From contig OZ244799.1 in NCBI GenBank assembly GCA_965219955.1, positions 960,001 to 1,024,000 on the forward strand: a DNA stretch of 64,000 nt, given 5' to 3'. The notes under the pieces are model-generated. The model did no database searches. It saw nothing but the letters and a program-made list of their open reading frames with translations, and was not told the origin of the DNA. Each line of letters opens with the position of its first letter. Positions within the stretch are counted from its first letter, which is position 1. Source of the DNA: a bacterium. GTDB lineage: Bacteria > UBA8248. Below are positions 56,934-64,000 of this stretch, in pieces. The position numbers and the translations under genes are program-made.

Positions 56934-57755
56934 TCATGGCGCCTTTTGCTTCGTTTGCCGGTACATGTGGTTGAGCGGGCCTCTGCCGTTTCCGATGGCG
57001 AGCGCGTTCTCGATGGCGCCCTGGATGAAATCTTTCGCCCGCCTCACCGCTTCGATAGTCGGCTCCCCCTGCGCCAGCCCCGCCGCGATGGCCGAGGAGA
57101 GCGTGCATCCCGTGCCGTGGGTATGGGGGGTGTCGATGCGCCTGCCCTCGAGCGCGACCTCGTTTTCTCCGTCGAAGAAAATGTCCACGGCGCCATCGGT
57201 AATGTGGCCTCCTTTGAGCAGAACGCATTTCGCTCCCCGCTCGTGGAGGGCCCGGGCGGCGTCTCTCATCCGGGCGAGGGTTTCGATTTCTCCGGTTTCC
57301 AGGATGTCGCGCGCTTCTTCCGTATTGGGCGTGACGACCTCGGCCAGCGGGAAGAGGTTGTCGACGAGGGCGTCTCTCGCGTCGGGCGCGAGGAGGCGGT
57401 CGCCGCTTTTGGCGACCATCACCGGGTCGAGCACGACGCGCGCGAGCGCGTGCTCTTTGAGTTTCGCGGCGACGACCTCGATGACGTCGACCGTGGCGAG
57501 CATGCCGATTTTCGCGCTTGCCACGTCCAAATCCGAGCACACCGAGTCGAATTGCGCCGCGATGAAGTCGGGCGGTGCGCCGTGCACCCCTTGTACGCCC
57601 ACGGTGTTCTGCGCCGTCAGCGCGGTGATGACCGAAGCGCCATAGACCCCGAACGCGCTGAAAGTCTTGAGGTCGGCCTGGATCCCGGCTCCGCCGCCTG
57701 AGTCCGAACCCGCTATCGTCAGGGCGATGGGGGGAGGGCTCCCGGGTTTCGCCAT
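56934..57755 (-). CDS. thiD: Hydroxymethylpyrimidine/phosphomethylpyrimidine kinase
   Basis: [37 protein letters not shown]. Confidence 0.92.
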
Positions 57756-57879
57756 GTCTTTCTCCTTTCGCTTCACATCATAAGGCGATGCGACATGAAA
57801 ATGTAGCACACCGGGAATATATTGGGAGGTTGTCGGGAATATGACGAAGAGAAAAAAACGGGGAACCGCTTTAATGGGG

Positions 57880-57913
57880 AATTCTTGACAAATTTGTTTG
57901 GGAATTATAGTCT
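57880..57913 (+). promoter_or_regulatory. sigma70 promoter of the cysK operon overlapped by a candidate Rrf2 operator
   Basis: TTGACA (57885-90)-17 nt-TAGTCT (57908-13); imperfect palindrome ATTCTTGACAAATTTGTTTGGGAAT (57881-905). Confidence 0.6.
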
Positions 57914-57957
57914 CACGCTCGGCTGGTTCGGTGTAAAAGGATTGGAAGGGCACTCTC

Positions 57958-58917
57958 ATGGCATTGGGCACCCGGGGCCGTCCGCCCCAGATTCTGAGGG
58001 CGCTTCCCTCGCTCATCGATCGCATCGGAGGCACGAGCCTCGTCCAGTTGCAGCGTCTTCCCGATGCTTCCGGCGCGCGCGTGTTCGCCAAGCTCGAGCA
58101 ATACAACCCCGGCGGGAGCGTGAAGGACAGAATCGCGCTCAGCATGGTGCTCGACGGCGAGCGGCGCGGCCTCCTGAAGCCCGGCGGGACGATCATCGAG
58201 CCCACGAGTGGCAACACGGGCATTGGCTTGGCGCTCATCGGCGCCATTCGCGGCTACAGGACGATCATCGTGCTCAGCAAGAGCATGAGCCACGAGCGCA
58301 ACTCCCTGCTCACGGGCTACGGGGCCGAGGTGGTCTTCAGCTCCAGCGAGGGCGGCATGTACGGCTCGCTCGTGCTGGCCGAAGCCATCCTGGAGGAGAA
58401 CCCGGACTACTTCATGCCCCAGCAGTTCAACAACCCGGCCAACCCGGAGATCCACCGCAGGACCACGGCGCGCGAGATCCTGCGCGACATGGGCGCGGAA
58501 TCGGTGGACGCCTTCGTGGCGGGCGTGGGGACGGGAGGCACCATCACGGGCGTGGGTGAGGTCCTGAAGGAGAGAAGGCCGGAAACGCTCGTCATCGGCG
58601 TGGAGCCCGCCGCGTCCCCCGTTCTCACGGGCGGGGAACCCGGCCCGCACCAGATTCAGGGGATCGGCGCGGGCTTCGTGCCTGCGGTGTTGAACCGGGC
58701 GATCATCGACGAGGTGATGCCGGTGAGCGATTCGGACGCGTATGAGGTGAGCAAGGCCCTGAGCCGGGAGGAGGGCATGGCCGCAGGCATTTCGGCGGGA
58801 GCGGCGGTAAGCGCGGCTCTTGAGGTGGCGCGGCGGATGGGGCCTGAGGAAAACGTGGTGGTCGTCATTCCCGACGGCTGGGAGAGATATTATAGTCTGG
58901 AGCAGCATTTTCGTTAG
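57958..58917 (+). CDS. cysK: Cysteine synthase A
   Basis: NPGGSVKDR, PTSGNTG, GVGTGGT, PGPHQIQGIG loop of CysK type. Confidence 0.88.
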   Translation: MALGTRGRPPQILRALPSLIDRIGGTSLVQLQRLPDASGARVFAKLEQYNPGGSVKDRIALSMVLDGERRGLLKPGGTIIEPTSGNTGIGLALIGAIRGYRTIIVLSKSMSHERNSLLTGYGAEVVFSSSEGGMYGSLVLAEAILEENPDYFMPQQFNNPANPEIHRRTTAREILRDMGAESVDAFVAGVGTGGTITGVGEVLKERRPETLVIGVEPAASPVLTGGEPGPHQIQGIGAGFVPAVLNRAIIDEVMPVSDSDAYEVSKALSREEGMAAGISAGAAVSAALEVARRMGPEENVVVVIPDGWERYYSLEQHFR

Positions 58918-58970
58918 GCAACTTACTTCAGCATCCCCGGAGAGCGGGGTTTTCAGATCAGGAGAGAGAA

Positions 58971-59249
58971 ATGGCGGTAACGGTTCGTATTCCGACACCT
59001 TTACAGGAGTTCACACAGCAGCAGGACGCCGTGGAGATCGCGGGCGCGGACGTGAAGGAAGTGCTCGCGAACCTCGACAGCCAGTTCGCGGGCATCGGCC
59101 AGCGCCTCTATGACGAGGAGGGCAAGCTGCGGCGTTTCGTGAACATTTACGTGAACCAGGAGGACATCCGCTTCCTGCAGGGAGAGGGAACGGCGGTGAG
59201 CGATGGAGATGAGGTCTCCATCGTGCCGGCCATCGCGGGCGGCCTGTAA
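58971..59249 (+). CDS. MoaD/ThiS/CysO-type ubiquitin-like sulfur carrier
   Basis: VRIPTPL...LRRFVNIYVNQEDIRF...GDEVSIVPAIAGG-L. Confidence 0.92.
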   Translation: MAVTVRIPTPLQEFTQQQDAVEIAGADVKEVLANLDSQFAGIGQRLYDEEGKLRRFVNIYVNQEDIRFLQGEGTAVSDGDEVSIVPAIAGGL

Positions 59250-59281
59250 TCGTCCGCAAACCCCGAGAGGAGAGTCGCCCC

Positions 59282-59932
59282 TTGGGCTTGAGCGAAGAGC
59301 AGATTCAGCGCTACAGCCGCCACATTCTGCTCCCTGGTGTGGGAGGAGTCGGGCAGGAGCGCCTGCTGGCCTCTTCCGTCCTCATTGCCTATTCGGAGGA
59401 TGAGGAGAGTGCTGCGCTCACCGCCCTGGCGTATCTGGCGGCTGCGGGCGTGGGCCGGATCGGCTGGTGTCCGCTCGATGGGGGCGACGGGCTCAAGCAG
59501 AAATCGCCGCTCTCCGCCTTCTATGGCGGCAGCCTGGGAGGTGGCCTCAAGAGGTTCAACCCCGATACGAGGCTGGTTCCCGTTCGACCGGACGAGGGAG
59601 CAGGGGAGGTTTTCGACGTCCTCATCCGGCTGGGCGATGAAGGAGCCTCAGATGATGAGAGATTCGAGGCTTCGGCGAAAGCCGCGCTGCGAGGCGTCTC
59701 CCGTGGGGAGGCCGGAGAAATTCTCGAGGGACCCGGCGGTTTCGGGGAGCCGGACGCAATACCATCTCCGAGGGGCGCATCGACAGTGGCGGCCCAGGGC
59801 GCTTTGGGCGCATGGCTGGCCGCGAGAGCCTTGCGGCATCTGGTGGATGAAATGGAAACAGTGGGGTCGACTGCGCAGGCCCGATTCGATTTTTCGCACG
59901 GCCTGATGGAGGCGCGTGCGAACCTTTCCTGA
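59282..59932 (+). CDS. Degenerate ThiF/MoeB (E1-like) protein lacking ATP-binding motifs
   Basis: RYSRHILLPGVGGVGQERL, YLAAAGVG and FNPD retained; GxGxxG, NLxRQ, DN and CxxC absent; intact ORF with RBS GAGGAG. Confidence 0.8.
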   Translation: MGLSEEQIQRYSRHILLPGVGGVGQERLLASSVLIAYSEDEESAALTALAYLAAAGVGRIGWCPLDGGDGLKQKSPLSAFYGGSLGGGLKRFNPDTRLVPVRPDEGAGEVFDVLIRLGDEGASDDERFEASAKAALRGVSRGEAGEILEGPGGFGEPDAIPSPRGASTVAAQGALGAWLAARALRHLVDEMETVGSTAQARFDFSHGLMEARANLS

Positions 59933-59965
59933 GATTTTCAGGAGCTAAGTGCGAGGGCCATACCA

Positions 59966-60904
59966 ATGGTCGAATCGACGGTGGAGAATCCCGCGAGCGC
60001 GTTCAGAAATTTAGAGGATTCCCCAATCATCAAGTGTATCGGCAACACCCCTCTGCTGGAAGTCAAGCTGTTCGAGAGCGAGTTCCCGGACGTGGAGGTC
60101 TACGCCAAGGCGGAGTGGTTCAACCCGGGCGGCTCGGTGAAGGACAGGCCGGCGCTCTTCATGGTGAAGGACGGCCTGGAAACGGGAGCGTTGCGCCCCG
60201 GCAGGATTCTGCTCGATTCCACGAGCGGCAACACCGGCATCGCCTACGCCATGATCGGCGCGGCACTGGGGATTCCGGTGCGCCTCGTCCTGCCTGCGAA
60301 CGCGAGCGACGAACGCAAGGCGACCTTGAAGGGCTACGGGGCCGAGATCGTTTTCTCGGACCCCCTGGAGGGCTCGGACGGCGCGCAGCGCCTCGCGGCG
60401 AAGATGTATCAGGACGAGCCGGAAAAATACTTTTTGCCCTGCCAATACGACAACCCGGCGAACCCGCTCGCCCACGTCGAGACCACGGCGTCCGAGATTC
60501 TCGAGCAGACGGGTGGCCGCGTGGAGCACTTCGTCGCGGGTCTCGGCACTACCGGCACCCTGGTGGGCACGGGGCGCGGCCTCAAGGCGAGAAAACCCGA
60601 CGTCGTGGTGCATGCGGTCATGCCGTCGGAATCGTTTCACGGCCTGGAGGGCATGAAGCATATCCCCACGGCCATTCGCCCGAAGATTTACGATGAGAGC
60701 GTGCACGACAACCTGATTCCGGCGAGCACCGAGGAGAGCTACGAGCTCGCCGAGCGCATCGCGAAAGAAGAGGGTCTCTTCATCGGCCACTCGGCAGGCG
60801 CCGCGCTCGTGGGCGTGCGCGAGGTGGCGAAGCAGATAGGCAAGGGCGTTATCGTCACCCTGTTCCCCGACGGGGGGGACAGGTACCTGAGCGAAGCGCG
60901 CTAG
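59966..60904 (+). CDS. cysM: Cysteine synthase B-like PLP enzyme (CysM type)
   Basis: NPGGSVKDR, STSGNTG, GLGTTGT, short HGLEGMKH loop. Confidence 0.8.
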   Translation: MVESTVENPASAFRNLEDSPIIKCIGNTPLLEVKLFESEFPDVEVYAKAEWFNPGGSVKDRPALFMVKDGLETGALRPGRILLDSTSGNTGIAYAMIGAALGIPVRLVLPANASDERKATLKGYGAEIVFSDPLEGSDGAQRLAAKMYQDEPEKYFLPCQYDNPANPLAHVETTASEILEQTGGRVEHFVAGLGTTGTLVGTGRGLKARKPDVVVHAVMPSESFHGLEGMKHIPTAIRPKIYDESVHDNLIPASTEESYELAERIAKEEGLFIGHSAGAALVGVREVAKQIGKGVIVTLFPDGGDRYLSEAR

Positions 60905-60906
60905 GA

Positions 60907-61213
60907 GGGGGTGTTGAAAAAGTCCCGTGGAGCGATTTTGGTTGAGCGCCCGGTCTTGAAGTTCACTCCCCCCTTGAGGGGGTCGGGCTTCCCGAGGGGA
61001 AAGCCCGACAGAAGCCGAGCGTTTTTTGCGAAGGCTGATGCGGTGGGGGGTAAAATGCGTTTTATCGCCACTCCGAATTATACCCCCCACCGAATCGCTT
61101 TCGGGCTTACGCCCTCAGCTCTTCGACTCCCCCTCAAGGGGGGAGTGATTTTTCTCTCTCGTCGGTCAGTTACATACGACAAATCCAGAGTTTCGGACTT
61201 TTTCAACAACCCC
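60907..61213. mobile_element. MITE-like non-autonomous element (307 bp)
   Basis: 19-bp terminal inverted repeats GGGGGTGTTGAAAAAGTCC / GGACTTTTTCAACAACCCC (18/19); nested internal inverted repeats; no transposase. Confidence 0.75.
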
Positions 61214-61226
61214 GAGGAGGCTTGGT

Positions 61227-61721
61227 TTGCGTCTGAATCGTGAACAGGTGGAGGCGATGCACCGCCATGCGCGCGAGGCGTATCCCGATGAGTGCTGCGG
61301 GCTGATCATCGGGCCTCCGCGCGGGCGGGGTGGTGCGGAAGAAACGCTCGCCCTCCTGCCTTGTAAGAACGTGCAGAACGAGATGCACGAGAAGGACCCC
61401 GAATTTTATCCCCGGACGGCGCGGCGCGCATTCCTGATCGATCCCTTCGAGTTCGAGCGCATCGTGAGAGAGGCGGAGAAGGGGGGCGAGGTGGTGCGCG
61501 GCATCTTCCACAGCCACCCGGACGAGGACGCCTATTTTTCGCAGGAAGACGTGGATGCGGCGGTTCCTTTCGGGGATATCCCGTCGTTCCCGGAGGCGGA
61601 GCACGTCGTCATGAGCGTGCGCGAAGGCGCCGTACTCGGGCAGAAGGTGTATTCCTGGGACGCGGAGCAAAAGACCTTTATCGAGAGCGATCTGGAAATT
61701 CTCGAGGAGGCGGGCGCGTGA
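61227..61721 (+). CDS. JAMM/MPN+ (M67, Mec-like) metallopeptidase
   Basis: YPDECCG and FHSHPDEDAYFSQED (E...HSHx7SxxD); RBS GAGGAGG. Confidence 0.92.
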   Translation: MRLNREQVEAMHRHAREAYPDECCGLIIGPPRGRGGAEETLALLPCKNVQNEMHEKDPEFYPRTARRAFLIDPFEFERIVREAEKGGEVVRGIFHSHPDEDAYFSQEDVDAAVPFGDIPSFPEAEHVVMSVREGAVLGQKVYSWDAEQKTFIESDLEILEEAGA

Positions 61722-62527
61722 GCCTGCATCATCCTCGCGCGGGGTTGCCCGGTGAAGCGCCGCCGGCGGCCGTGAACGCATCCACGGCGCGCGTGATCGA
61801 TAAAAGCGCACTGGCGGGTTCATCCGTCCTCATCGTGGGCGTCGGCGGCCTGGGCTGCCCTGCGGTGCTCGCCCTTGCGGCTGCGGGCGTGGGGCGGGTC
61901 GGCCTTGCGGACCACGACACGGTGACGCTCGACAACCTCGCGCGCCAGATTCTCCACCGCACCGAAGACATCGGCCGCCTGAAGGTGGACTCGGGCGCCG
62001 ATTCCATATTCAGGCTCTCCGCCCAAGTAGCGGTGGACAAGATTCCCCAAAGGCTCACGCGCGAGAACGCCGCCAGAGTCATCGCGCCCTATGACGTAGT
62101 AATCGACGGCAGCGACAACCTCGCGGCCAAACTCGCGCTGAACGACGCCTGCGCCGCCACGGGCAAGCCGTGGGTGATGGGCGGCGTTTTGCGATTTTTC
62201 GGCCAGGTGATGACAATTCTGCCGGGCCGGAGCGCGTGTCTGAGGTGCCTGGTGGGCGAGGAGGGCGCGGACGTCCGCGGACTCGATTGCGGGGATGCGG
62301 GCGTTTTCGGCGCGGTGGCCGGTTTCGTGGGCATGGCGCAGGCAGCGGACGCGCTGCGGGTCCTCAAGGGGCTTGCGCCGGCCTGGTCGAACAGGCTGAT
62401 GACGGCCGATTTACGGAAAAACGCCGTCGGGAGCGTGCGCGTGGTCCGGGATCCGGATTGTCCCGCCTGCGCGCTCGCCGGGAGCGGGCAAACGAAAATC
62501 CCCGCGGGGCGGGGAGCGCTCGTTTAG
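61718..62527 (+). CDS. ThiF/MoeB adenylyltransferase (E1-like) lacking the N-terminal RYSR helix and rhodanese domain
   Basis: GVGGLG, DNLARQ, KV, DGSDN, CLRC, DCGDAGV, CPAC. Confidence 0.88.
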   Translation: MSLHHPRAGLPGEAPPAAVNASTARVIDKSALAGSSVLIVGVGGLGCPAVLALAAAGVGRVGLADHDTVTLDNLARQILHRTEDIGRLKVDSGADSIFRLSAQVAVDKIPQRLTRENAARVIAPYDVVIDGSDNLAAKLALNDACAATGKPWVMGGVLRFFGQVMTILPGRSACLRCLVGEEGADVRGLDCGDAGVFGAVAGFVGMAQAADALRVLKGLAPAWSNRLMTADLRKNAVGSVRVVRDPDCPACALAGSGQTKIPAGRGALV

Positions 62528-62565
62528 CGAATGGGGCAGGGAGAGACGATGAGAGGATGCCGCCG

Positions 62566-63018
62566 ATGAAGATATCGACCAAAGGGCGATACGCCGTGCT
62601 CGCCATGATAGAGCTGGCCCGGCATTCGCAGACGCATCCCGTGCCCCTGCCGCAGATTGCCGGCAAGCTCGGCATCAGCCAGCACTATCTCGAACAGTTG
62701 TTCGTGAAGATGCGCAGGGCCTCTCTGGTGAGCAGCACGCGGGGGCCGGGAGGCGGCTACATCCTCGCGCTGCCGCCCTCTGGGATCAACATGCGCGACG
62801 TTCTCTGCGCGGTGGGCGAGACGATTCAGCCCGTCGATTGCGGCGAAGAACCTCCCTCGGCGCCGTGTCCGAACATTTCGGTGTGCGGAAGCCGCGCGCT
62901 TTGGAAAAAACTCGAAGACGCCATAGACAAAACGCTGCGCGAGACCACGCTGGAGGAGTTGAGCGCGCCGCCGCCCGGCTCTGGCGTCCGGCTGCCCAAC
63001 TTCGAGGTGGGTATCTAG
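62566..63018 (+). CDS. Rrf2 family transcriptional regulator (IscR/CymR-like)
   Basis: MKISTKGRYA, YLEQLF, STRGPGGGY, Cx8Cx5C; start 62557 or 62566. Confidence 0.92.
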   Translation: MKISTKGRYAVLAMIELARHSQTHPVPLPQIAGKLGISQHYLEQLFVKMRRASLVSSTRGPGGGYILALPPSGINMRDVLCAVGETIQPVDCGEEPPSAPCPNISVCGSRALWKKLEDAIDKTLRETTLEELSAPPPGSGVRLPNFEVGI

Positions 63019-63054
63019 GATTGCTACGAAGAATTTTCTAAGTGGAAATTCTCT

Positions 63055-63285
63055 TTAGCTTTTTCTGTCTTGTTTAGCCCATCCCCTCTTAAACCACTCT
63101 CTTTCCTCTATTTCTTCGTCTATCAGTCTTTCAATTTCATTCTGGGCTTTAGGATTGTCTTTGTATTTGATCCACATGGCATCGAGTTTATTTAATGCAT
63201 CGTTAAAATCTCCTAAAACTTCATCTCGCTCTTCGTCCTTTTTCAGGGTTTCTTCGTCCGGCCTATTTGGTCCCACCCATGACAT
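63055..63285 (-). CDS. Hypothetical small acidic protein
   Basis: 76 aa ORF, ATG with AGGAG RBS, in AT-rich segment; no recognised motif. Confidence 0.55.
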   Translation of the reverse strand: MSWVGPNRPDEETLKKDEERDEVLGDFNDALNKLDAMWIKYKDNPKAQNEIERLIDEEIEEREWFKRGWAKQDRKS

Positions 63286-63428
63286 TTATATTGCTCCTAG
63301 GTGAAAGATTAGTAATGTGTAATTGGCTTGTTCTATTTAGTTTCTATGCAAACATCCAAGATAGCCAAAATGCTCAAGGTGTTTAGGTCTCATTTAAATT
63401 TTTTGGCTCTTGATTGAGGAGAATGATA

Positions 63429-63749
63429 CTAAAACGATTGTTGCCACACGGATTTACCTCGTGAAGAATCAGGCCATACGACTTTCACACCTTTTTGTTG
63501 CTGCCCTTTCTGATGCACAAGCAAAATAGTTTCAGGGTCTAGGGTATAAATTTCTTCATTTTCCGTTCTAATAAACCCTTCTGCTTTTTTCTGTTTGACC
63601 TGCGCATACAAAACACCATTATCATCTTTTCTTGGATTTTCTACCTCAACAGTGAGCACATGCTTCCAGTCATTCTTATTGTCGGGCAGGTTGAATTCCC
63701 ATGAAAAATCATCCTTGAATTGAAAAATTTTGTAACACTCTATTACCAT
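63429..63749 (-). CDS. Hypothetical protein
   Basis: 106 aa ORF, ATG with GAGGAG RBS, in AT-rich segment; no recognised motif. Confidence 0.55.
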   Translation of the reverse strand: MVIECYKIFQFKDDFSWEFNLPDNKNDWKHVLTVEVENPRKDDNGVLYAQVKQKKAEGFIRTENEEIYTLDPETILLVHQKGQQQKGVKVVWPDSSRGKSVWQQSF

Positions 63750-64000
63750 TGACTCAATCTCCTCGCATTGAAGTTTTCTTCCCAGAATGCCATTGATGGT
63801 TCTAGCACAATTCCATAACTCCTGTTACGAAAAGTCAGCAAAGAAAACTGGCGCTTTATTGGGGATCCTCCGGAGGAACTCGGAAAAACTGATACAAACG
63901 TGTTTCTCGACGCAGCTTCCCATCTGTCATCGTCTCTGTGTATGTTGATTCAAACTGAAGGAATAGGGCGAACAAACGCAAGCTTTTACATCAGCTATCC

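Follow-up and report, generated by a model that had tools for sequence, protein, structure and literature searches.

Within a 64,000-nucleotide stretch of a bacterial contig (OZ244799.1 of GenBank assembly GCA_965219955.1, positions 960,001 to 1,024,000 of the forward strand; hereinafter the window, in whose coordinates positions are given), we found a predicted sulfur-carrier cysteine-biosynthesis operon whose E1-like adenylyltransferase appears to be divided between two genes. One codes for a catalytically dead ThiF/MoeB-fold protein, here termed psE1 (59282-59932), and the other for an active-site-complete ThiF/MoeB enzyme without the N-terminal RYxR helix pair, here termed E1s (61718-62527). 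Eukaryotic E1s are asymmetric: they have a single active adenylation domain or subunit, supported by an inactive counterpart. The bacterial sulfur-carrier activators, which are thought to be ancestral to them, are described as symmetric homodimers. In dimers of the MoeB type, the N-terminal helix pair of each subunit reaches into the other subunit. On balance, we consider it probable that the operon's adenylyltransferase consists of two paralogous genes that arose by duplication and complementary loss, the products of which form a heterodimer with a single composite active site.

The list of open reading frames confirms both frames, with the motifs that an initial annotation, made from the letters of the window, had ascribed to them. 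The psE1 gene has a TTG start codon with an AGGAG-type ribosome-binding site 6 nucleotides upstream. Its N-terminal segment, QRYSRHILLPGVGGVGQERLL, carries the RYSRH...GQERL helices, and the protein also retains YLAAAGVG, FNPD and a C-terminal helix (QGALGAWLAARALRHL). The position of the P-loop is occupied, after a strand, by VLIAYSEDEESA (AYSEDEESA) instead of GxGGxG, and NLxRQ, DxxDN and CxxC are absent from its sequence. The aligned loop-glycine positions read D, E, S and A, gaps or other residues stand where the active-site Arg and Asp would be, and Cys is absent. Searched against Pfam, psE1 matches no family up to an E-value of 0.1 and does not reach the ThiF gathering score, and the NCBIfam matches are confined to residues 3-66, which align with the N-termini of the MoeB, MoeZ and UbaA models far below their cut-offs. 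A profile of the psE1 family matches MoeB over residues 3-212, ThiF over residues 4-210, and Uba4. Further, an AlphaFold2 model of moderate quality (predicted local distance difference test score, pLDDT, 68.5; predicted template modelling score, pTM, 0.75) finds Uba4, ThiF and MoeB as its top Foldseek matches in the PDB (E 1e-7 to 2e-5, probability 1.00), with chains of SAE1 and APPBP1 lower among the matches. psE1 has the ThiF/MoeB fold at full length but is catalytically dead; it retains the Arg-finger helix pair, the helix that follows the missing P-loop, LNPD and the C-terminal interface helix.

The family is well conserved in length and in its N-terminus. Among the first 69 homologues listed, 62 have a coverage of at least 94%, at 40-100% identity and with lengths of 210-232 residues. 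Across 48 aligned sequences R10, Y11, S12, H14, L16, L17, P18, G21, G24, Q25, L28 and L29 are invariant, along with a few residues of later helices and N93 and D95 of LNPD, and R13 is conserved at 90% or above. The ratio of nonsynonymous to synonymous substitution rates (dN/dS; Nei-Gojobori, pairs with dS < 1, 21 loci) is 0.35 for the whole gene, well below 1, and varies along it: 0.054 for residues 1-33, 0.26 for 34-62, 0.42 for 63-110, 0.49 for 111-170 and 0.28 for 171-216. Neighbouring genes stand at 0.07-0.12 and E1s at 0.22, making psE1 the fastest-evolving gene of the cluster. This profile points to relaxation in the former catalytic core and to a helix pair that is constrained like a housekeeping enzyme. 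Contigs from RNA libraries of related strains bridge the CysO-psE1 and psE1-CysM junctions, which is weak evidence of transcription because such libraries can contain DNA. psE1 is a conserved gene under selection and not a gene in decay; the initial annotation had argued as much from the open frame, the selective retention of the Arg finger and the ribosome-binding site, and its argument is borne out by that site (59266-59275), by the conserved full length and by purifying selection on the dead copy that is strongest over residues 1-33.

The GTG start codon of E1s overlaps the stop codon of the JAMM protease gene that precedes it. The protein carries GVGGLG, DNLARQ, K89, DGSDN, CLRC, CPAC and DCGDAGV, and lacks RYxR; it scores 208.9 bits against the Pfam ThiF family (PF00899, cut-off 28.1) over profile positions 16-238. 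From its residue 29 onward it aligns to residues 26-248 of Escherichia coli MoeB (1jw9_B), such that about 25 of the first MoeB residues are without a counterpart. In an alignment of 72 sequences G41, G43, G46, N73, R76, Q77, K89 and D133 are invariant and aligned to MoeB, the Zn-site cysteines C174, C177, C248 and C251 are likewise invariant, and C191 aligns with the MoeB loop Cys. E1s is a ThiF domain only, of 269 residues, with neither a catalytic-cysteine domain nor a ubiquitin-fold domain (UFD). Its residues 1-28 form a variable Pro/Ala-rich stretch, and many orthologues without this stretch start 11-17 residues before the P-loop. The stretch (about 25 residues; 61721-61820) is an indel polymorphism: in two contigs of related strains, one from DNA and the other from an RNA library, position 61723 is joined to 61820 with 21 other letters between. 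The RNA-library contigs leave 61902-62771, which includes most of E1s, uncovered, and this is not evidence of silence.

The absence of RYxR before the P-loop is a property of the whole close family, holding for all 66 close E1s homologues listed (P0121-P0186, three fragments or fusions included), with E-values of 1.7e-66 or lower and 52-91% identity in those alignments that span most of the query. Among 54 more distant homologues the motif is present in 44, with two more bearing an RY variant and one more falling outside the search pattern; P0191, for example, has a variant RYHYN and is not truncated. In a tree of E1s homologues built by a quick method, the truncated Nitrospinota E1s form a single clade (37 rows, support 99), and the branches starred in that tree force at least two changes of the "truncated" label.

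Two candidates for a hidden E1 N-terminus were considered and rejected. In the lineage of the window, the in-frame segment upstream of E1s overlaps the JAMM gene, contains no RYxR and lacks conservation, and stops close it in several loci. In a second lineage, that of the genome G042 described below, the in-frame upstream segment reads like R-H/Y-G-R-A-L-L-Q-P, which is another frame of the conserved C-terminal G-E-R-Y-F-S-L-E-G motif of CysK; as a coding segment it would have the wrong spacing to the P-loop, and in L217, L219 and L229 the frame closes shortly before it.

How the two proteins might fit together was addressed with a complex model of E1s (72 aligned rows), psE1 (48 rows) and ATP, computed as the heterodimer only. 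It scored 0.92 (0.91-0.92 over three runs), with 0.00 for the best of three controls; in calibration 58 of 80 solved complexes came up to the 0.92 mark, as against 2 of 110 mismatched pairs. At least 96% of the contacts are common to the runs, and the pLDDT of the partner is at least 78. At the core of the predicted interface, the psE1 helix of residues 170-185 packs on the E1s helix of residues 199-214. In the same model, psE1 residues 6, 9-14, 16-18 and 20 contact E1s residues 71-72, 74-78 and 81-83, namely the NLARQ phosphate-binding segment. The mean column entropy of psE1 is 0.77 at the modelled interface and 1.33 elsewhere, or 0.91 and 1.46 when residues 1-33 are left out, a comparison that does not control for burial.

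The two genes belong to a block of seven tightly packed plus-strand genes (57958-63018), identified from the open reading frame list with Pfam and NCBIfam. The features of the block, in order, are as follows (PLP, pyridoxal phosphate; MITE, miniature inverted-repeat transposable element; REP, repetitive extragenic palindrome):

57958..58917, plus strand: CysK1, a PLP-dependent cysteine synthase A, the first gene of the block (PF00291, 257 bits)
58971..59249, plus strand: CysO-like ThiS/MoaD sulfur-carrier protein, 92 residues (PF02597 ThiS, 64.6 bits)
59266..59275, plus strand: Shine-Dalgarno-like GAGAGGAGAG upstream of the psE1 TTG start (direct reading)
59282..59932, plus strand: psE1, catalytically dead ThiF/MoeB-fold protein, 216 residues (motifs, profile, structure model)
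59966..60904, plus strand: CysM-like PLP enzyme, presumed CysO-thiocarboxylate-dependent cysteine synthase (PF00291, 219.7 bits)
60905..61226, no strand assigned: dispersed repeat, MITE/REP-like, between the CysM and JAMM genes (matches within its own genome)
61227..61721, plus strand: Mec-like JAMM/JAB metalloprotease, 164 residues (PF14464 Prok-JAB, 72.3 bits)
61718..62527, plus strand: E1s, active-site-complete ThiF/MoeB adenylyltransferase, 269 residues, without the N-terminal RYxR helix pair (Pfam, alignment to MoeB)
62560..63018, plus strand: Rrf2-family (IscR/CymR-like) regulator, closing the syntenic block (PF02082, 122.2 bits)

CysK1 scores 393.8 bits against TIGR01139 cysK (cut-off 350.95) and is syntenic across all fetched loci, and the CysM-like enzyme reaches 340 bits against TIGR01138 cysM, below its cut-off of 394.2; the Rrf2 regulator, also syntenic, scores 123.6 bits against TIGR00738 (cut-off 73.3). 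Judged by this gene content, the block is a CysO/CysM/Mec-type sulfur-carrier cysteine-biosynthesis operon of a Nitrospinota genome, and its predicted function is sulfur transfer rather than protein conjugation. The initial annotation had seen in the small co-encoded protein a ubiquitin-like substrate; this reading has to be replaced, in that the protein is a CysO/ThiS-type sulfur carrier in a CysK-CysO-CysM-JAMM operon, with no E2-like gene in the block (open reading frame list, Pfam). Nor do Pfam and NCBIfam reveal a rhodanese domain among the proteins of the block. The carrier (dN/dS 0.073) ends in ...A-G-G-L (59235-59249), one residue past Gly-Gly, which implies a C-terminal trimming before adenylation, perhaps by the operon's own JAMM protease. 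The close homologues and related contigs bear Nitrospinota or Nitrospinaceae names in their sources, and sponge-metagenome runs contain related strains.

The gap of 322 nucleotides between the CysM and JAMM genes has at least 76 matches in its own genome (the best 40 of 419 candidates having been scored), many at 87-98% identity, and holds a terminator-like hairpin at 61126-61146. The corresponding gap is only about 15 nucleotides in several relatives, which argues that the repeat is a MITE/REP-like insertion within the operon; the depth of DNA contigs over it is 20-80 times that of the flanks. An Rfam search of 57400-63400 gave no match. Just past the Rrf2 gene (62900-64000) the G+C content falls from about 0.65 to 0.40-0.52, and two small minus-strand frames found there (63055-63285 and 63429-63749) have a different composition; this segment may be foreign or mobile DNA.

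The gene pair is a stable fixture of this operon. Full-length psE1 without internal stops is present in 20 of 22 genomes of the same genus and in both genomes examined from other genera of the family. The 20 genus-level loci fetched and G023 all have the order CysK1-CysO-psE1-CysM-JAMM-E1s-Rrf2, with which G024 agrees over two contigs; the complementary motif pattern, which goes well past what chance would produce, is likewise reproduced in 20 of the 20 genus-level loci. In all relatives with a long enough contig psE1 and E1s are in synteny, the only genome having psE1 without a detected E1s orthologue being G005, where the psE1 contig is 3.2 kb. Two genomes of the same genus, G001 and G007, are devoid of both genes and keep a MoeZ-like gene. 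The genome of the window (G000) has three ThiF-family genes, including a full-length, RYxR-bearing MoeZ-like gene (G000:C1:2320751-2321461); the third (G000:C1:4275237-4275914; L003) scores 115.7 bits and lies in an open frame of 545 residues. In G006 there are two complete copies of the cluster on separate contigs (C6 and C8; L036 and L037), and the contamination estimate of this genome is 16%; the copies may come from two strains binned together.

As for ancestry, four outgroup loci have just one E1, which is of full length, bears RYSR and comes after CysO. Hence, psE1 occupies the place of the ancestral E1, and E1s looks like the added copy. In G025, a genome of the same taxonomic order, an E1-like gene bearing RYAR follows CysO (L052 1-233), keeps a GLGGVG loop and has no NLxRQ region. 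This gene is cut by the contig end; it may represent an intermediate stage of degeneration.

Comparable pairs are found beyond this family. In surveying them we read catalytic sites by alignment (mafft --keeplength), which is approximate for very divergent rows; a plain P-loop pattern gives false positives, because the GVGGVG of the N-terminal GxxGQ segment matches too. In a profile run over five genomes, dead and canonical E1s reach equally high scores, which therefore cannot tell them apart. A profile search of 1.84 billion representatives returned only 8 matches at E-values of 1e-30 or lower, which are the psE1 family and its fragments. When psE1 is taken together with 85 listed library proteins of at least 190 residues, 53 rows keep at most three of the six catalytic markers (five of these being the psE1 family), 7 keep four or five, and 26 have the complete set. 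Wherever one of these rows begins at its own N-terminus it bears RY[SAC]R, and most dead rows retain both CxxC motifs. The reference library holds about 48 further dead-E1 clusters (at 50% identity) beyond the psE1 family. The entries P0245-P0382 are diverse ThiF-fold proteins of 200-260 residues with an RYSRQ N-terminus and two CxxC motifs, but without the P-loop, Arg, Lys and Asp; a language-model look-up places P0279 in clusters that are commonest in the candidate phylum Binatota.

Dead E1s of this Zn-site type also occur at seven of the 80 loci listed in a metagenome scan (L133, L134, L135, L143, L163, L199 and L206), and in five of the seven the dead gene follows CysO and/or CysM. The operon at L133 combines CysO and CysM with a dead E1 that has RYSR and two CxxC motifs, and with an active E1 from whose N-terminus a YSRQIILPEVG stretch seems to have been deleted; this is the only such operon with long flanks, and it also bears what we take to be a ThrC-like gene and possibly an NIL domain. 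A scan of genome contigs with the psE1 alignment yielded five true family members among the 80 loci listed, and gives no range for the family.

The second lineage is represented by G042, a GC-rich metagenome-assembled genome labelled "uncultured delta proteobacterium", in which the locus L213 encodes CysK, an E1, CysO, a protein of 116 residues, CysM and JAMM. The E1 begins 6 residues upstream of its P-loop, and the small protein is a mini pseudo-E1:

L213 6938-7288, strand not given: mini pseudo-E1 of G042 (psE1-profile alignment)

The psE1 profile aligns over the first 50 residues of this protein, for which there is also a weak Pfam match to the N-terminus of ThiF. Full-length versions (112-140 residues, 42-61% identity) are present in 20 of 31 genomes around G042, of which 19 loci (L213-L231) were examined, the twentieth genome, G054, being unpublished and left out. 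The full order CysK-E1-CysO-mini-CysM-JAMM is found at 17 of the 19, L222 being without CysK and CysM matches and L229 ending after the mini gene. The E1 starts a few residues before the P-loop at 17 of the 19 too, only its 3' part having been matched in L215 and L221. R6 and Q7 of the mini protein, which by motif position are the counterparts of MoeB Arg14-Gln15, are invariant in all 19, as are GxxGQ, the tyrosine of RYLAGAGVG and, within the final helix, G-A and A-L. In an alignment with psE1, the former catalytic core and the C-terminal strands are missing from the mini protein, while the N-terminal helices, the helix that follows the lost P-loop, the LNPD region and the interface helix are all there; 36 of the 55 modelled interface positions align to a residue of the mini protein. 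The carriers of L133 and L213 terminate at Gly-Gly itself.

In every lineage with a dead copy in the operon, the partner E1 has lost its own N-terminal helix, and going by the aligned sequences the complementary dead/active pairing also occurs in at least one other lineage and on a metagenome contig. In the tree of E1s homologues the branches of the E1s of L133 and L213 are long and unresolved, hence this tree lends no support to an independent origin of those pairs. The suggestion of the initial annotation that active E1s without RYSR go together with dead, RYSR-bearing partners agrees with the 20 genus-level loci and with L133; the dead E1 of L199 stands by itself. We entertain, at somewhat less than even odds, the broader idea that bacterial sulfur-carrier E1s have repeatedly been turned from MoeB-type homodimers into two-gene, single-site heterodimers, with the dead paralogue kept only as a helix-docking scaffold. 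If so, the dead partners would form a graded series, running from the P-loop-bearing form of G025 through the Zn-site-bearing ones (about 48 clusters) and the Zn-less psE1 of 216 residues to the mini form of about 116 residues.

Briefly, we advance the following plausible mechanism for the origin and action of the pair. E1s would have kept the P-loop, the NLARQ Arg, Lys89, the DGSDN Asp, the Zn site and the crossover-loop Cys while losing the N-terminal helix pair; psE1 would have lost the nucleotide site, the Zn site and the Cys while keeping the helix pair and the MoeB-type dimer-interface helices. As long as an active and a decaying copy co-assembled, the dead site would no longer need the helix of the active copy, and the site of E1s could still use the helix of the dead copy. 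Such co-assembly would lead to an obligate or near-obligate heterodimer with one active site. In the present-day operon, E1s and psE1 would form a MoeB-like heterodimer with a single composite site, in which psE1 acts as a docking scaffold that lays its RYSRH helix across the nucleotide site of E1s; Arg13 would be the equivalent of MoeB Arg14, with the family-invariant Arg10 beside it as a second candidate for a catalytic contribution. After removal of the extra Leu, for which the JAMM protease is the presumed agent, E1s would adenylate the C-terminal Gly of CysO. The acyl-adenylate would be converted to CysO-thiocarboxylate with sulfur from a donor not encoded here, CysM would condense the thiocarboxylate with an activated serine, and the JAMM protease would release cysteine. 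These steps are modelled on the CysO/CysM/Mec/MoeZR pathway of Mycobacterium tuberculosis.

Several observations weigh against this proposal. Binding is drawn from one model that resembles solved dimers, computed for the heterodimer without a homodimer comparison; because MoeB, ThiF and eukaryotic E1 dimers have been solved, the model's pass may only reflect likeness to, or memory of, known structures. The heterodimeric E1 of the initial annotation draws support from a conserved dead/active pair and from a modelled dimer that outscores its controls and would place RYSRH on NLARQ; the output of that model lists protein contacts and not the position of ATP. Further, the N-terminal Arg of one MoeB or ThiF subunit reaches the ATP site of the other, yet the arginine fingers of both MoeB (Arg14) and ThiF (Arg11) are stated to be non-essential, and no such finger is present in E. 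coli TcdA, which works as a homodimer (PMC13139853, 2026). Loss of the helix hence need not disable E1s. In P0060, a psE1 cluster of 22 member sequences, the finger-equivalent Arg13 is itself replaced by His; the earlier claim that neither protein works alone is not supported. Five or six truncated E1s fall outside the family (P0190, P0200, P0205, P0209, P0221 and perhaps P0218) and may lack a dead partner, and the dead E1 of L199 has unrelated neighbours, with no CysO or second E1 within 6 kb. It adjoins an Era-like GTPase gene. The co-occurrence of psE1 and E1s is not independent evidence, because within each lineage it is largely the presence or absence of one operon. Likewise, covariation of evolutionary rates among the seven cluster genes at 21 loci, a weak test as the genomes are close kin, gives no special signal for psE1-E1s (partial r 0.24, rank 8 of 21 gene pairs), with CysK1-psE1 ranking third. 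The main contribution of psE1 could lie in stability or solubility, as is reported for Tcd1, or in some additional contact.

These points lend themselves to another explanation, which we regard as rather unlikely but deserving of attention: E1s may be a self-sufficient, TcdA-like homodimer and psE1 a non-catalytic accessory, be it a scaffold or adaptor for CysO, CysM or the sulfur donor, or a regulator of flux, with its conserved N-terminus serving that other contact. The dispensable fingers, the His of P0060, the indifferent rate covariation and the solitary L199 gene would all sit well with such a role, as would the want of a rhodanese in the cluster, which leaves some sulfur-delivery partner unaccounted for. 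Against it, the most strongly constrained parts of psE1 are those of the MoeB-type dimer and of the trans active-site contact; these same elements are what the mini pseudo-E1 retains, and the partner E1 lacks its own N-terminal helix wherever a dead copy sits in the operon. We regard as very improbable a role for psE1 as a regulatory decoy that forms inactive or altered heterodimers with another E1, such as the MoeZ-like protein. While the genome does encode three ThiF-family proteins, one of them full-length and with RYxR, and any ThiF fold might model as a dimer with psE1, strict synteny ties psE1 to E1s and not to the MoeZ-like gene, the latter persists in G001 and G007 where both psE1 and E1s are missing, and a donated helix would be superfluous for a full-length E1. 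Least credible of all, and close to negligible in our estimate, is that psE1 is a decaying remnant of the ancestral E1 after CysO or a spurious frame in GC-rich DNA. Its position in place of the full-length E1 of the outgroups, its pace of evolution and its failure to match Pfam are what one would cite for it; against these stand an open frame of constant length (about 216 residues) down to 40% identity in dozens of clusters, the dN/dS values, above all at the N-terminus, a ribosome-binding site, a recognizable fold, coverage by RNA-library contigs, and the fact that internal stops, when looked for in the psE1 orthologues, were not seen in 22 genomes.

If the composite heterodimer that we favour is correct, E1 asymmetry arises readily in bacteria, without conjugation machinery and in ordinary sulfur metabolism. 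If conversion has indeed been repeated, these operons would offer a living prokaryotic series for the duplication-and-complementary-loss route behind the inactive/active asymmetry of eukaryotic E1s, and the mini-subunit lineage could not do without the helix supplied by its dead partner. The proteins are small (216 and 269 residues, or 116 and about 250) and hence tractable material on the contribution of a helix or arginine in trans; the pairs also bear on why a dead subunit is retained and on how heterodimers of paralogues become locked in. For annotation, the psE1-type "hypothetical" genes would be an overlooked component of the pathway, as would dozens of further dead-E1 clusters.

Among known systems, the E. 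coli MoeB and ThiF homodimers (PDB 1JW9/1JWA/1JWB and 1ZUD/1ZFN) share with the present pair the fold, the catalytic motifs of E1s, a sulfur-carrier substrate and homology to psE1 over nearly its full length. The difference lies in the division over two genes, one without an active site and the other without the N-terminal helix, psE1 being also without a Zn site; one siteless and one helix-less subunit leave at most one active site per dimer. The open-access full-text literature yielded no description of a two-gene bacterial MoeB/ThiF heterodimer in sulfur metabolism. In the pathway, the closest relative is that of M. tuberculosis, where CysO-thiocarboxylate made by MoeZR reacts with O-phosphoserine via CysM and Mec+ releases cysteine (PMC3227635), and the same gene set makes up operon type 4c of Iyer et al. 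2006 (PMC1779556). As far as the portions of these two accounts available to us go, the carrier, the PLP cysteine synthase, the JAMM protease and an E1-like activator are held in common, and no mention is made of an inactive E1 partner. Here, in contrast to the mycobacterial pathway, the activator has no rhodanese and is encoded as an active/dead pair, and there are in addition a second cysteine synthase (CysK1), an Rrf2 regulator and a CysO with an extra C-terminal residue.

In its logic, the closest analogue is yeast Tcd1-Tcd2, a dehydratase of the ThiF type for ct6A (cyclic N6-threonylcarbamoyladenosine). It too consists of two ThiF paralogues, with the inactive Tcd1 being needed and contributing Arg59 to the Tcd2 site, although R59A has little effect (PMC13139853). 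Unlike the present pair, Tcd1-Tcd2 is eukaryotic, membrane-anchored and active on tRNA, Tcd1 still binds nucleotide-site elements, and the N-terminal segment of Tcd2 is not lost as a whole (PMC13139853). Among bacterial proteins, BilD, the E1 of the Bil antiphage operons, combines inactive and active adenylation domains as a pseudo-dimer in which Arg9 of the inactive domain completes the site; it does so in one polypeptide, with a catalytic-cysteine (CYS) domain, an E2 and protein conjugation, as against two genes and sulfur metabolism here (PMC10557695). In eukaryotic E1s generally, the Arg is donated by inactive adenylation subunits or domains (IAD; PMC10557695), and SAE1-SAE2 and NAE1/APPBP1-UBA3 pair an inactive with an active subunit that together have a single active site, the key Arg coming from the inactive side (PMC12355090, PMC10557695).

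The present pair resembles SAE1-SAE2 and NAE1-UBA3 in comprising two paralogous adenylation folds, one of them inactive, here encoded together. It differs from them in having no catalytic-cysteine domain, UFD or E2, in the expected formation of a thiocarboxylate and not a thioester cascade, in its independent bacterial origin, and in the far smaller size of psE1. Bacterial ThiF folds without adenylation activity are also known as the E1-like non-catalytic partners of YcaO cyclodehydratases, in the biosynthesis of ribosomally synthesized and post-translationally modified peptides (RiPPs), where they bind leader peptides; to our knowledge, those do not keep the RYxR helix. Thus, psE1/E1s is not a member of the heterodimeric E1 family, because it has no Cys domain, UFD or E2: it works like a heterodimeric E1 only in the adenylation core, and neither is it a canonical MoeB/ThiF homodimer.

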